The notes under the pieces are model-generated. The model ran no database searches. It was not told where the DNA came from and saw only the letters and a program-made list of their open reading frames with translations. Positions 1,533 to 31,256 of a stretch of 64,000 nucleotides of DNA are shown here, piece by piece; within the stretch, counting starts at the first letter, position 1, and every line of letters begins with the position of its first letter. The position numbers and the translations under genes were made by a program. Source of the stretch: Escherichia phage saus132; the sequence record NC_047884.1. One strand, given 5' to 3'.

Positions 1533-2219
1533 ATGGTACGAAGGAAGTTAGATAAAGACACTATCAATAAAGATTTAGAGCCTAGAAGAATTAAGCTAAT
1601 AAGTGAGTATTCTGGAATCCTTAATAAAGGCACATTCATATGTAGTGTAGGTCATACATGGGAAGCTACTGTTAATAATGTAAGGAATAGCAAATCTGGC
1701 TGTCCAATATGCGCAGGTACTTTTAAACTTACTAAAGATTCGGTAAATGAAGGGTTACGTAGTAGGGGTATTACTCTTATTGGAGAGTATAAAAATAATG
1801 CTACTAAAACTCTTTTTGAATGTGAGCATGGGCATAGGTGGGAAGCCACAGTAGGCAATGTAAAGAATAAAAATTCTGGGTGTCCTGTGTGCGATACTGA
1901 TTGGAATACCCCTGGTTTTATATACATTATGTGTAGTAGTATGGGAACTAAAATAGGAATTAGTATCTCTCCTGAAAGACGGTGGAAAGAGATAGTTAAA
2001 AGCTCCAATATACTAGATTTATATATTTTTGGTGTCTATTCAATAGATTCTGGTACCAAATCTAAAAGTAGGTCTATCGAGAAACAGACTCATGAATATT
2101 TTTCAGAATATAGATTAAAGTATACAGGATTTGCTGGATGTACTGAATTCTTTGATATATCTCCCATAGCCGTAGAAAAGCACTTAATTAATAATGGGTG
2201 TATAAAGGTAGAAAAATAA
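1533..2219 (+). CDS. Putative GIY-YIG-like (T5orf172-type) nuclease with two N-terminal zinc-ribbon repeats
   Basis: Duplicated HxWEATVxNV...SGCPxC repeat; C-terminal GFIYIM...KIGIS segment; very AT-rich island. Confidence 0.5.
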   Translation: MVRRKLDKDTINKDLEPRRIKLISEYSGILNKGTFICSVGHTWEATVNNVRNSKSGCPICAGTFKLTKDSVNEGLRSRGITLIGEYKNNATKTLFECEHGHRWEATVGNVKNKNSGCPVCDTDWNTPGFIYIMCSSMGTKIGISISPERRWKEIVKSSNILDLYIFGVYSIDSGTKSKSRSIEKQTHEYFSEYRLKYTGFAGCTEFFDISPIAVEKHLINNGCIKVEK

Positions 2220-26722: not shown

Positions 26723-27597
26723 TGAGTAAATCCTGGGGAAAATTTATTGAAGAGGAAGAAGCTGAGCTGGCTTCTCGTCGCAACCTAATGATTGTTGATG
26801 GAACTAACTTAGGCTTCCGCTTCAAACATAATAATAGTAAGAAACCATTCGCTTCAAGTTATGTTTCTACAATTCAATCTTTAGCAAAATCCTATTCAGC
26901 TAGAACTACAATCGTTCTCGGCGATAAAGGAAAGTCTGTATTCCGTTTAGAACATCTTCCCGATTACAAAGGGAACCGTGACGAAAAGTATGCACAACGT
27001 ACAGAAGAAGAGAAAGCACTAGATGAACAGTTCTTCGAGTATCTTCGTGATGCTTTCGAGTTGTGTGAAACCACATTCCCAACTTTCACTATTCGTGGTG
27101 TAGAAGCAGACGATATGGCAGCTTATATTGTTAAGCTCATTGGTCATTTATATGATCACGTTTGGCTGATCTCTACTGATGGTGACTGGGATACTCTATT
27201 AACTGATCGAGTTTCTCGCTTCTCCTTCACCACACGTCGTGAGTACCATCTTCGTGATATGTATGAACATCATAACGTTGATGATGTAGATCAGTTTATC
27301 TCTCTGAAAGCAATTATGGGAGATCTTGGTGATAACATCCGTGGTGTTGAAGGCATCGGTGCAAAACGTGGTTATAATATTATCCGTGAATTTGGTAATG
27401 TTCTGGATATTATTGATCAACTCCCTCTGCCTGGGAAACAGAAATATATACAGAATCTAAATGCATCGGAGGAGTTGCTTTTCCGAAATTTGATTCTGGT
27501 TGATTTACCGACCTATTGTATAGATGCTATTGCTGCTGTGGGTCAAGACGTACTAGATAAGTTTACGAAAGATATTTTGGAGATCGCAGGACAATGA
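26722..27597 (+). CDS. 5'-3' exonuclease / flap endonuclease (T5 D15-like)
   Basis: 291 aa; MIVDGTNLGFR, GVEADD, ISTDGDWDTL, GDLGDNIRGVEGIGAKRG (FEN/PIN plus H3TH motifs). Confidence 0.95.
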   Translation: MSKSWGKFIEEEEAELASRRNLMIVDGTNLGFRFKHNNSKKPFASSYVSTIQSLAKSYSARTTIVLGDKGKSVFRLEHLPDYKGNRDEKYAQRTEEEKALDEQFFEYLRDAFELCETTFPTFTIRGVEADDMAAYIVKLIGHLYDHVWLISTDGDWDTLLTDRVSRFSFTTRREYHLRDMYEHHNVDDVDQFISLKAIMGDLGDNIRGVEGIGAKRGYNIIREFGNVLDIIDQLPLPGKQKYIQNLNASEELLFRNLILVDLPTYCIDAIAAVGQDVLDKFTKDILEIAGQ

Positions 27598-28040
27598 TTA
27601 AAATTAAACTAACTCATCCAGATTGCATGCCAAAGATTGGTTCTAATGATGCCGCAGGTATGGATCTGCGTGCATTCTTTGGTACTAACCTTGCAGCAGA
27701 TTTACGTGCTATTGCACCAGGCAAATCCCTTATGATTGACACCGGTGTCGCGGTGGAAATTCCGCGAGGTTGGTTTGGTCTGGTAGTTCCTCGCAGCTCT
27801 TTAGGTAAGCGTAAACTGATGATCGCAAACACCGCAGGAGTGATCGACTCAGACTACCGTGGTACTATTAAGATGAACCTTTATAACTATGGTTCTGAAA
27901 TGCAAACTCTGGAGAATTTCGAGAGACTTTGTCAGCTAGTAGTACTACCACACTACTCAACTCATCATTTTGAAATCGTTGACGAACTAGAGGAGACTGA
28001 TCGTGGAGAAGGCGGCTTTGGAAGCTCAGGAAGTAAGTAA
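27594..28040 (+). CDS. dut: dUTPase
   Basis: dUTPase motifs AAGMDLRA, VVPRSSLG, GVIDSDYRG, RGEGGFGSSG. Confidence 0.95.
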   Translation: MIKIKLTHPDCMPKIGSNDAAGMDLRAFFGTNLAADLRAIAPGKSLMIDTGVAVEIPRGWFGLVVPRSSLGKRKLMIANTAGVIDSDYRGTIKMNLYNYGSEMQTLENFERLCQLVVLPHYSTHHFEIVDELEETDRGEGGFGSSGSK

Positions 28041-28269
28041 TTTTGTTGGTCCTACTATGGTAGGAGTAGGCGTAGATCAATCTAACTTTTACAAGATTGA
28101 CGTTAAATACGTTGAACCTGAGAAAATAGTACTGAGAGTTGGTGCATCTGGTGTAGTAGAACAGTGGGATGAAGAAGGATTTATCGCACTTTGCACTGAA
28201 TCTCAAGATCCTATGCTTAAAGCCATGCTAGCAGTATATAACTTAGGTAGTATTGCAGGTAGTAGATAA
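28003..28269 (+). CDS. Hypothetical protein (doubtful)
   Basis: ORF overlapping dut 3' end; no motif. Confidence 0.3.
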   Translation: MEKAALEAQEVSNFVGPTMVGVGVDQSNFYKIDVKYVEPEKIVLRVGASGVVEQWDEEGFIALCTESQDPMLKAMLAVYNLGSIAGSR

Positions 28270-28272
28270 TAA

Positions 28273-28303
28273 GAAACCCCAGTGGACAATCCACTGGGGT
28301 TTC
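28273..28303. terminator. Bidirectional terminator at early/late boundary
   Basis: GAAACCCCAGTGG-acaa-TCCACTGGGGTTTC with T/A runs on both sides; convergent genes meet here. Confidence 0.6.
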
Positions 28304-28328
28304 TTTATATTACGTATATATATATATA

Positions 28329-29654
28329 TTATGAGTTATCTGGCGTAATGAGCTCGCTCACAAGTTTTTTCAGTTCGTCTAGCTCTTGTTCTAAAGTAGC
28401 AACTTTTAGTTTCAATTCGTCTGTTTCCTTCTGTTGCTTATCATTATCCTCAATTATTTCTTTAATTGCGTTGGTGAGTAACGCCGTCACACCTGCATAG
28501 TTAATTGAAAGATAATCCGTGTCTGCTACTTTGTAGACAGCTTCTGGTAAAACAGTTACAACGTCTTGAGCAATTAAACCAGCTTCTTCCGTGTAAAAAG
28601 AATGTTCGTTTTCCTCTAAGCTATTACGTTTGAAGTAGGTGTATCCCTGTAAGACTTTAACTTTATCTTTTGCGGATACTATTTCTTTTAACTGAGCTTT
28701 AAGGCGTATATCAGATGTGCTTTGCCATGCGACGGCCGTAGCTTGTCCCGCGCTATTGAAACCATAAGATGTATTTCCAACTAGAAGACGCTGGTAGGGG
28801 TTCCCATCCCCATAAATAACAACATCAGCGCCAGATGCAAAAGTATCACCCCATCTAACTGATTTCCAAATATTTACACCGCCGTCCCTAGACGGGATTT
28901 CCACTAACAGACCAGCCGCCCGATCTCGCCATTCACCATGACCGCCAGCTTGCACTTGACCCGCTATAAGCGCACTACCGGCCCCAGCACGAACACCGTA
29001 TACATACATACCACGAGAGTCATTAGGCGCTGAACTGGAGATAGCGCGTAGGGTGGAAAATCCATTCCCATTAAAAGTACAGAGATTAAGTGAATCGGTA
29101 TAAACATCTAAAACACCATCACTACGCTGTGCAAATCCAGTGTCACTATCACCAATAGCAATAGATCGAGCACCTAAACCCTGTGCGTCACCCGGAGTAC
29201 CAATTGACATACGATCGGTTACTGCTAATGTTGCTGTACGGGATTTGCCAGAAACACCCAAAGCGTTAATAGATAAAAGCCCTGAATTATTGAACGTACA
29301 ATATGATTCTATATTATTTGATAGATTCTTAGTGTGAATTACGGTTTGGGTTTCACCAGTGGCACCATTAATCGCATTATAAAAACGCGATTGGGAACGT
29401 GCCGAGCCTGACGTAGAATATAATGTACTATGATAGATCCCACCATTAGTAGATTCAATATCATAACGAGTAAGAGCATTAACACCGCTAAAGGTAACAG
29501 TTTGACCTTCGCCTAATCGAAGATTAGTACGAGCACCGTTTACATCTGTTGCACCTGTACCGCCAGCACCAATAGGAAGAGCTGATGTAGCGTTATCGCT
29601 ATTTCTAGCAACTCGCCAATCGCCATTATTAGCAATCCGGAGTTCATATGTGGC
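28329..29654 (-). CDS. ltf: L-shaped tail fibre, C-terminal part in frame with upstream ORF (no own start); ends in intramolecular-chaperone (S74) domain
   Basis: Frame open and in phase from the TAA at 29655-29657 down to 28329 (2928 nt overall, divisible by 3); no ATG/GTG before the track's TTG at 29261; C-terminal LKAQLKEIVSAKDKVKVLQGYTYFKRNS is S74 chaperone-like. Confidence 0.7.
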   Translation of the reverse strand, partial: ATYELRIANNGDWRVARNSDNATSALPIGAGGTGATDVNGARTNLRLGEGQTVTFSGVNALTRYDIESTNGGIYHSTLYSTSGSARSQSRFYNAINGATGETQTVIHTKNLSNNIESYCTFNNSGLLSINALGVSGKSRTATLAVTDRMSIGTPGDAQGLGARSIAIGDSDTGFAQRSDGVLDVYTDSLNLCTFNGNGFSTLRAISSSAPNDSRGMYVYGVRAGAGSALIAGQVQAGGHGEWRDRAAGLLVEIPSRDGGVNIWKSVRWGDTFASGADVVIYGDGNPYQRLLVGNTSYGFNSAGQATAVAWQSTSDIRLKAQLKEIVSAKDKVKVLQGYTYFKRNSLEENEHSFYTEEAGLIAQDVVTVLPEAVYKVADTDYLSINYAGVTALLTNAIKEIIEDNDKQQKETDELKLKVATLEQELDELKKLVSELITPDNS

Positions 29655-31256
29655 TTATGGGTTAGTAAATGCGTTATAATCACCTAAAGTAGTTCCAGTT
29701 GTTTGTCTAACAGAATCAACGCCGAGATTCCCTCGAGCTGAAACTTTATCTGTAAGGTCCGCGAGGTTCTGGTCCTTTTTCAAAGACGCTTGCATAACCT
29801 GTGCTGCAGATGCAGCCGCTGTCTCCGCTCTATCTGCTGCACTGGTGGCGTTAGTAGCTTTCTCACTTGCCGTTGTAGCGCTACCAGCGGCCTCTGTAGC
29901 CTTTTGCGTAGCTGTGGTAGCCTTTTGTGTAGCTAAAGCCGCAGCATCTTCTGCTGCTTCTCTCAGCGGTGTCATTGCGTTCAGTGATTCAGTTTTAGCA
30001 GTATTAATAGCGTTAACACCAGCGACCTTGGCTGTGTTAACACCACCAATCGCGCTAGATTTAGCACTTCCTATTGCCGTTAACGCTGCGTCTTTTGACT
30101 GGGTAATGCTGGTTGTTGCATCCGTTTTAGCGGTATTAATTTCTCCAACAGCACCGTCTTTAATAGTTTGCGTGTCGCTCTTTAACTGCTCAACGTCGGA
30201 CTTAAGATTCTGTACTGTGATCACAGCTTGCATAGCAGTACTCGCGCTACCTGATGCAGCTTGTTGAGCTAACTTAGCAGCGTCTTCACTAGCTTTTGAG
30301 TTAATTTCGCTAGTCTTTGCATTAGTTTCTGAATTTTTTGCTGCTAATGCTGATGTAGAGGCTTGTGTAGCGAATGTTTCTGCTTCATCTCTGAATCCTT
30401 TGGATTCAGAGGCAGAGGCAGCGGATAGGGCAGCATTAGTCTCACTATTTTTTGCTGCTGCTGCATATGCTGCTGCATTAGTCTCACTAGTTTTTGCCTT
30501 AGTCTCACTAGTTTTTGCATTAGTCTCACTAGTTTTTGCATTAGTCTCACTAGTTTTTGCCTTAGTCTCACTAGTTTTTGCATTAGTCTCACTAGTTTTT
30601 GCTGCTATTTGTGATGTAGCAGCAGCATTTTTACTTGCTAATGCATTAGTTTCGCTAGTAGCAGCATTCATAGCCGAAGTAGCTGCCGCTAATTCGGAAG
30701 CTTTAGCGTTAGTCTCTGAAACTTCAGCGTTAGTCTCAGAAGTTTTTGCTGCTGTTTGTGAAGCTGCTGCCGCATTTTTACTTGCTAATGCATTAGTTTC
30801 AGAAGTCTTGGCATTAGTCTCAGAAGTTTTTGCGTTAGTTTCAGAAGTTTTTGCTGCGTTTTTGCTTGCTAAAGCTGCTATTTCAGAAGCCTTAGCACTA
30901 GTTTCAGAAGTCTTGGCATTAGTTTCTGAAGTTTTAGCATTTGTAGCAGAAGTTGCTGCGGCTGTTTGAGAGGCGGCAGCTGCATTTTTACTAGTTAATG
31001 CATTAGTCTCGGAAGTCTTAGCGTTTGTCTCAGAAGTTTTTGCATTGATTTCTGATGTTTTTGCAGCATTCTCAGAATCTTTTGCTGCCGCAGCAGAAGC
31101 AGCAGAGGCCTCAACAGCCGCTGTTAGTTGACCAGCAGTAATAGAACTAATAGAATTACCTAAAACTACTGTATATTTAGGATACTTACTAGCAGTAGTT
31201 GTAGTGTCATCTATGTTCAGAGTCTGCTGTACAATAATTTTAGTTTTAAGTGCCAT
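29655..31256 (-). CDS. ltf: L-shaped tail fibre (pb1-like), N-terminal 533 codons ending at an in-frame TAA
   Basis: N-terminus [17 protein letters not shown]...; about 30 heptads of AKTSETN type; fibre motif NLADLTDKVSARGNLG. Confidence 0.8.
   Translation of the reverse strand: MALKTKIIVQQTLNIDDTTTTASKYPKYTVVLGNSISSITAGQLTAAVEASAASAAAAKDSENAAKTSEINAKTSETNAKTSETNALTSKNAAAASQTAAATSATNAKTSETNAKTSETSAKASEIAALASKNAAKTSETNAKTSETNAKTSETNALASKNAAAASQTAAKTSETNAEVSETNAKASELAAATSAMNAATSETNALASKNAAATSQIAAKTSETNAKTSETKAKTSETNAKTSETNAKTSETKAKTSETNAAAYAAAAKNSETNAALSAASASESKGFRDEAETFATQASTSALAAKNSETNAKTSEINSKASEDAAKLAQQAASGSASTAMQAVITVQNLKSDVEQLKSDTQTIKDGAVGEINTAKTDATTSITQSKDAALTAIGSAKSSAIGGVNTAKVAGVNAINTAKTESLNAMTPLREAAEDAAALATQKATTATQKATEAAGSATTASEKATNATSAADRAETAAASAAQVMQASLKKDQNLADLTDKVSARGNLGVDSVRQTTGTTLGDYNAFTNP
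30300..31080. repeat. Tandem 21-bp repeats inside the tail fibre gene
   Basis: Perfect copies of ATTAGTCTCACTAGTTTTTGC around 30476-30603 with degenerate copies on both sides. Confidence 0.85.

Follow-up and report, generated by a model that had tools for sequence, protein, structure and literature searches.

How is transcription brought to an end where the early and late genes of Escherichia phage saus132 converge? The window analyzed here, i.e. the whole stretch of 64,000 nucleotides taken from sequence record NC_047884.1, belongs to a T5-like Epseptimavirus of the family Demerecviridae. Positions 27000-30000 were 100% identical to Bacteriophage T5-like poul149 (MF431738.1, 84986-87986), and comparison of the same segment with four sister isolates of poul149 gave 99.9-100% identity. 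Across the whole window, long ORFs occupy the + strand as far as 28269, after which they lie on the - strand (28329 to ~58.5 kb). Genes are convergently oriented at one point only in these 64 kb, the 28269/28329 gap, and the maximum of the cumulative GC skew at ~28 kb coincides with this point. The gap spans 59 bp between the + strand stop codon TAA (28267-28269) and the - strand stop codon TAA (28329-28331). A sequence-only reading, made from the letters and their translations, had claimed that a hairpin separates convergent early and late transcription units here and that the site is the switch point between them. The first claim agreed with the + strand ORFs ending at 28269, the - strand ORFs starting from 28329 and the peak of GC skew, and the second with the gene content, with flap endonuclease, dUTPase and a T5.132 homologue to the left and tail fibre, tape measure and related genes to the right.

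The genes on both sides of the gap were identified by comparison with the annotated relative. On the + strand, MF431738.1 lists a recombinase, a recombination exonuclease, a 'ribonuclease H', a dUTPase and a small hypothetical protein; the protein termed 'ribonuclease H' is the D15 flap endonuclease of T5. The final gene of the early block (28018-28269, + strand, stop codon TAA at 28267-28269; CDS P149_0129 in MF431738.1) encodes an 83-residue homologue of T5.132, which matched Pfam DUF7369 with an E value of 2.7e-31 and occupies the location of T5.132 in T5. On the - strand, MF431738.1 lists tail-fibre proteins and a tape-measure protein. The first gene of the late block, as seen from its translation, is of the L-shaped-tail-fibre type (28329-31256, - strand, stop codon TAA at 28329-28331). 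It is a single frame of 976 codons interrupted by one in-frame stop at 29655-29657, and it is split into two 'tail fibers protein' CDSs in MF431738.1. The C-terminal part of the product carries a Peptidase_S74 chaperone domain (Pfam PF13884, E = 2.7e-10). The N-terminal half (29700-31200, - strand) is made up of many tandem copies of an 'AKTSETN'-like motif and is of low complexity; this repeat region coincides with a strong dip in AT skew (-0.29) at 30000-30999.

A premature stop in the tail-fibre gene has been described for poul149 and saus132 (PMC5816814), and the stop at 29655-29657 matches it. On the late transcript it lies ~1.3 kb upstream of the hairpin. The 441 codons beyond it, including the Peptidase_S74 domain, may be untranslated or re-initiated, and an untranslated stretch of this kind could expose the late transcript to Rho ahead of the terminator. 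Because of the premature stop, therefore, some late transcripts may end by Rho before the hairpin is reached.

Inspection of the gap revealed a palindrome at 28271-28305, which takes up most of the 59 bp. The stem is a perfect helix of 16 bp formed by AAGAAACCCCAGTGGA (5' arm, 28271-28286) and TCCACTGGGGTTTCTT (3' arm, 28290-28305), and the arms are joined by the 3-nt loop CAA (28287-28289). The sequence-only reading had correctly recognized a hairpin, but its stem length of 13 bp covers just the portion that starts at 28273. A GC-rich core of 10 bp, CCCCAGTGGA/TCCACTGGGG (28277-28299), contains seven G-C pairs, and the outer 6 bp are A/T-rich. With two mismatches included, each arm of the inverted repeat reaches 21 nt, and the arms are then 90% complementary (28266-28286 / 28290-28310). 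The segment 28271-28305 was the longest hairpin-type inverted repeat with non-overlapping arms in the 64-kb window and the strongest hairpin found there. Folding of a 91-nt context yielded -34.8 kcal/mol for the + strand and -29.7 kcal/mol for the - strand, corresponding to z values of -6.2 and -5.3, respectively, and 0 of 200 shuffled sequences were as stable. Stem energy did not depend on the strand: the full 16 bp gave -27.1 kcal/mol and the 10-bp core -18.2 kcal/mol. The hairpin begins 1 nt past the + strand stop codon and 23 nt past the - strand stop codon.

U-rich tails follow the hairpin in both directions. The tail of the early transcript is TTTCTTTATATT (28300-28311, + strand), and that of the late transcript is TTTCTTATTATC (28265-28276, - strand), the latter overlapping the stop codon of the + strand gene. 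T accounts for six of the first eight bases past the GC-rich core on each strand (TTTCTTTA on + and TTTCTTAT on -), and both U-tracts are interrupted, not pure (UUUCUUUA on + and UUUCUUAU on -). The outer arms AAGAAA...TTTCTT are fully complementary, such that the A-run before the hairpin mirrors the T-run after it. The flanking A/T runs reported from the letters are hence present, in the form of an A-rich outer 5' arm and a T-rich outer 3' arm.

The element possesses the parts by which intrinsic terminators are recognized, namely a stable GC-rich stem-loop, a U-rich tract 3' of the stem and a location just past a stop codon. It also shows the arrangement of a bidirectional terminator, with one hairpin between convergent genes and an A-run upstream mirroring the T-run downstream. 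The site was missing from the output of a consensus terminator scan. This is likely due to extension of the stem through the T-run, which left too few T residues after it, and the miss was not counted against a terminator. A search of Rfam yielded no family at or above the gathering threshold; all matches were sub-threshold and lay over the hairpin. The highest bit score was obtained for His_leader (28.1 bits compared with a threshold of 49) and was the same on both strands. Going by the scores rather than by the alignments, we read these matches as terminator-type hairpins in leaders and sRNAs. Assignment to a known RNA family was dropped because only sub-threshold Rfam matches were obtained.

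A named counterpart was found in the type phage. In T5, an 'efficient bidirectional rho-independent transcription terminator' is annotated between T5.132 and ltf (NC_005859.1, 81641-81680; sequence, AAAAACCCCAGTGGACAAAATCCACTGGGGTTTCTTTTTT). BLAST aligned positions 28237-28306 of the window with T5 81599-81677, beneath the annotated terminator, so that homologous sequence was found together with like flanking genes. In both phages the order is D15 flap endonuclease, dut, T5.132, hairpin and a tail-fibre gene on the opposite strand. The stem AAACCCCAGTGGA/TCCACTGGGGTTT is identical, and in both cases an A-run precedes it and a T-run follows. The two elements differ in the loop, which is CAA in the window and CAAAA in T5, and in the outer stem, which in the window is lengthened to 16 bp by AAG/CTT, unlike that of T5. 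The tail-fibre modules also differ. In T5, ~180 bp comprising an annotated promoter and a second hairpin lie between the terminator and the ltf stop codon, whereas only 23 nt are found at this place in the window. In the record of phage BB1, one terminator per strand is annotated on the corresponding hairpin. Judged by sequence and gene order, the element in the window is the orthologue of a terminator that is known and annotated in T5; a two-way terminator at this place is already known and not new. The earlier proposal of a bidirectional terminator is borne out insofar as terminator anatomy on both strands, the sole convergent gap and the annotated T5 orthologue all point to it.

Further features were noted on the T5 side. 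The part of the extracted T5 segment that is absent from the window (1637-1770) carries an annotated + strand promoter assigned to T5.134, an ORF that runs antisense to ltf; the second hairpin within the extra ~180 bp is GC-rich (AAAGGGGCCTAATGACCCCTCTTTTTT). The element in the window is not known to resemble the T5 nick sites. For the early/late junction of T5, PMC9961651 cites Kaliman et al. (1988, NAR 16:6230). Our literature searches did not find a mapping of T5 transcript 3' ends.

Comparable elements have been described in bacteria. As far as the account in PMC13500782 goes, which cites Ju et al. (2019), bidirectional terminators of bacterial convergent genes likewise consist of one hairpin flanked by an A-run and a T-run, each strand encoding a stem plus U-tail as in the window. 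Many bidirectional sites of Escherichia coli have been described as non-canonical and collision-driven (PMC13500782, bioRxiv 10.1101/2022.10.23.513370), whereas the element in the window is canonical on both strands.

Conservation of the element was analyzed with queries of two lengths. BLAST of 28150-28450 returned 341 phage records, and most matches stopped at query positions 153-162, which correspond to the 3' edge of the hairpin. A 57-nt query centered on the hairpin returned 412 phage records, mostly of T5-like phages of Salmonella and Escherichia. The region was taken from 26 relatives, and 20 of them, covering the genera Tequintavirus and Epseptimavirus, were aligned. The 13 inner pairs were paired in all 20 aligned sequences at a mean column identity of only 58%, and 92.1% of the alignment cells were paired. 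Changes on both sides were seen at four pairs, in one sequence each; shuffling gave a mean of 1.5 such pairs, and 1 of 500 shuffles reached four. In a control in which the 3' partners were slid, 0-1 pairs showed both-sided changes. Compensatory replacement of A-U by G-C occurred in SUT_E420 and also in T5_ev212, and that of U-A by C-G in MET_P1_179_112 and also in OSYSP. DT571/2 has an additional C-G pair in the stem. Base pairs were retained through compensatory changes, as expected of a structured RNA under selection. Most stem pairs never varied, and the covariation signal is therefore modest. Moreover, compensatory changes in a DNA palindrome fit selection on the + RNA, on the - RNA or on a DNA cruciform alike and cannot separate these. 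Exact-pattern matches to the core stem were also found in nine IMG/VR contigs; their flanks were unlike T5-like sequences, and they were set aside as unrelated hairpins.

Two relatives carry half-compensated pairs. In APCEc03, the stem portion AGCGG/CCACT forms a C.A mismatch on the + (early) RNA and a G.U pair on the - (late) RNA. The loop-closing pair of Spc35 is the reverse case, with G.U on the + (early) RNA and C.A on the - (late) RNA. They have the appearance of intermediate steps in the compensatory evolution of a terminator that works both ways. Compensatory evolution has been described for bacterial terminators, and a terminator common to two convergent genes is reported to have a better conserved stem than a one-way terminator (PMC5381666), a pattern that the near-invariant stem found here fits. 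In our own reading, a shared terminator has a near-invariant stem because an intermediate that still pairs as G.U in one RNA becomes a C.A mismatch in the RNA of the opposite strand. The anatomy of the element, its position, its orthology to the annotated T5 terminator and its conservation with compensatory changes are established by the present analysis.

The half-compensated pairs are strand-specific, G.U being formed on the + RNA only in Spc35 and on the - RNA only in APCEc03. This might speak for efficient termination one way only, e.g. of early transcripts; in the other direction the hairpin would then act mainly as a 3' stabilising stem-loop, or termination would depend on Rho or on head-on collision of polymerases. 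In the same vein, the two tails differ from each other, both being broken by C/A, and in E. coli convergent transcription itself is reportedly what makes polymerases terminate at bidirectional sites (PMC13500782, bioRxiv 10.1101/2022.10.23.513370). We nevertheless regard efficient termination in a single direction only as improbable. The element is almost perfectly symmetric, with equal stem energy and T at six of eight tail bases on both strands, the T5 annotation is explicitly bidirectional, and BB1 is annotated on both strands.

Among T5-like phages, the loop of the terminator palindrome faces either way, the two forms being exact reverse complements of each other. The loop CAA is present in the window, SH9, BSP22A, PRF-SP13, DT571/2 and GRNsp8, and its counterpart TTG in LVR16A, KPP2018, GSP044 and INF11. 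Likewise, CAAAA occurs in T5, MET_P1_100_107, GEC_vB_N5 and Riker, and TTTTG in BB1, SUT_E420, MET_P1_179_112, OSYSP, phiLLS, TrudiRoth and SP3. From the occurrence of both orientations we deduced that the loop has been inverted repeatedly at the DNA level, either through strand switching or because the arms recombined with each other. Considering the loop sequences, flipping would be far more parsimonious than three or five simultaneous substitutions.

Comparison of 28120-28420 with its relatives showed that the two sides of the hairpin have different nearest neighbors. The left 150 nt were 97% identical to SH9 and BSP22A, the right flanks of which are unrelated, and the right 100 nt were 93% identical to S114, the left flank of which is only 77% identical. 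The loop in the window is of the SH9/BSP22A type, and the T-tract is of the S114 type. The combination of a left side resembling SH9/BSP22A with a right side resembling S114 places a recombination joint within the 3' arm of the hairpin. In most relatives the homology does not extend past the 3' end of the hairpin, so that the variable tail-fibre cassette has its left boundary at the terminator.

These results invoke the idea that the element is primarily a palindrome acting at the DNA level, i.e. a homology patch or cruciform serving as crossover point for swaps of the tail-fibre cassette, with termination as a by-product. The stop of homology to the window at the hairpin in most relatives, the joint within the 3' arm (SH9/BSP22A on the left, S114 on the right) and the presence of both loop types in both orientations, implying strand switching or recombination between arms, would be in line with such a role. 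However, the junction between conserved and variable sequence coincides with the intergenic gap under any mechanism, and ~20-35 bp of identity are short for homologous recombination. Furthermore, every feature of an intrinsic terminator is present, the element is annotated as a terminator in T5, and intermediates of the G.U type point to selection at the RNA level. A primary function in DNA is thus highly improbable, and it would be additive to a terminator function and not really exclusive of it. A related notion is that the invariant palindrome, in addition to ending transcription, is a favoured place for crossover and strand switching on the left border of the exchangeable T5-like tail-fibre (host-range) cassette. 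We put this forward quite tentatively, as a possibility that is more doubtful than not. The joint in the 3' arm is in keeping with it, and so are the repeated loop flips, which imply activity of the palindrome at the DNA level in vivo.

Conserved intergenic linkers at module boundaries occur in mosaic phages, such as the promoter-stem-loop cassettes of the T4 type and the boundary sequences of lambdoid phages. The element in the window resembles them as a short conserved regulatory element at the edge of an exchangeable host-range module with a joint within it. It differs from them in being a terminator, not a promoter cassette, and evidence for promotion of exchange was not seen.

The hairpin is followed by a run of TA dinucleotides. 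The sequence-only reading had counted about nine TA units at 28311-28328. The tract itself is real; its count and start had to be amended to (TA)7T, TATATATATATATAT, at 28315-28329, as 28311-28314 read TACG. The final T of the run is also a base of the tail-fibre stop codon. (TA)7T is the only dinucleotide repeat of at least five units in the window, and a TA run of 12 nt is expected 0.00 times by chance. It is located in the 3' untranslated region of the late transcript, in the 23 nt between stop codon and hairpin, and beyond the terminator for the early transcript.

Relatives of the right flank were examined for their TA copy number. The first 80-100 bp of this flank, the 3' end of the tail-fibre gene, were matched by 38 records. 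The nearest relatives S114, S133 and CitS1 read ...TATTACG TATATAT TATGAG..., i.e. (TA)3T, and the remaining right-flank relatives carry interrupted versions, e.g. GTATACA or GTATATGTAC. (TA)7T was found solely in five near-identical genomes of the chee130_1 group, all five of which were identical over the tract without length variation. Pattern scans of IMG/VR and metagenomes for more right-flank relatives recovered OSYSP again and no others. The copy-number comparison suggested earlier thus separated the clades, (TA)3T from (TA)7T, and gave no difference within the group of five genomes. The tract had been called slippage-prone, for which one probable expansion from (TA)3T to (TA)7T between clades gives weak support; the five near-identical genomes showed no variation in length.

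To judge from the aligned flanks, the tract is most likely an expansion by 8 bp (four units) from (TA)3T in one near-clonal lineage, brought about by replication slippage. It resembles slippage-born dinucleotide repeats in that the uninterrupted (TA)7T differs by exactly four units from relatives with the same flank. As far as the five near-identical genomes show, among which it does not vary, it seems unlike contingency loci, and it is situated between stop codon and terminator, outside any reading frame or promoter. A role in replication origin function or unwinding was rejected in view of the restriction of the long tract to one near-clonal group.

A functional tract was considered in two forms, a -10-like element of an antisense promoter directed into the tail-fibre gene, and a spacer whose changing length adjusts termination or the stability of the mRNA in the manner of a contingency locus. 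The promoter scan listed TGGACA-17-TATATT (28283-28311, + strand; 10 of 12 matches) and TTTATA-17-TATTAT (28304-28332, + strand), and T5 has an annotated + strand promoter just past its terminator. As for a spacer, the distance between late stop codon and hairpin shifts with tract length from 15 nt to 23 nt between clades. On the other hand, 11 promoter-like matches compare with 11.4 expected from shuffles, and the -35-like hexamer is no more than a piece of the conserved hairpin. Only five records, which form one near-clonal group, carry the long tract, and its length is constant among them. In other phages that share this flank the tract is short or interrupted, and it is located outside coding sequence and any conserved promoter. 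An antisense promoter in the TA tract was rejected, its promoter-like matches being at chance level and unconserved, and a functional tract of either form is hardly credible. The TA run, lying in untranslated RNA or non-transcribed DNA, is most likely without function and may be regarded as neutral.

We thus consider it very probable that the palindrome at 28271-28305 acts on host RNA polymerase as an intrinsic (Rho-independent) terminator in both directions and that the adjoining (TA)7T is a lineage-specific microsatellite. T5-like phages rely on the RNA polymerase of the host for transcription (PMC10644984), and this enzyme recognises intrinsic terminators. Termination in saus132 is to be expected from anatomy, position, conservation and the T5 annotation, and it may well be efficient. 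Early (+) transcripts would end just past the T5.132 homologue, where the RNA would fold into the hairpin CCCCAGUGGA/UCCACUGGGG and be released in UUUCUUUAUAUU. Late (-) transcripts would end just past the tail-fibre gene, with formation of the reverse-complement hairpin and subsequent release in UUUCUUAUUAUC. In the classical manner of two-way terminators, the U-tract of each strand would be templated by the A-rich outer arm of the other. As the A-rich run encodes the opposite U-tail, one element of 35 bp would therefore insulate both convergent units and block antisense read-through. Collisions of convergent polymerases may raise the efficiency, as has been proposed for E. coli (PMC13500782, bioRxiv 10.1101/2022.10.23.513370).

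The GenBank record of the saus132 phage group lacks a terminator annotation, which can be transferred from T5 with confidence. Beyond annotation, the element is of little significance. Being compact, strong and symmetric, the terminator could find use in synthetic constructs, and the TA repeat might serve to mark strains of the chee130_1 group. The only thread that is mildly novel is the behavior of the palindrome at the DNA level, i.e. the loop flips and the recombination joint bordering the host-range cassette. In a phage group that is used for biocontrol, small but concrete leads on the exchange of host-range modules come from the joint in the hairpin, from the loops that have flipped and from the near-invariance of the stem.
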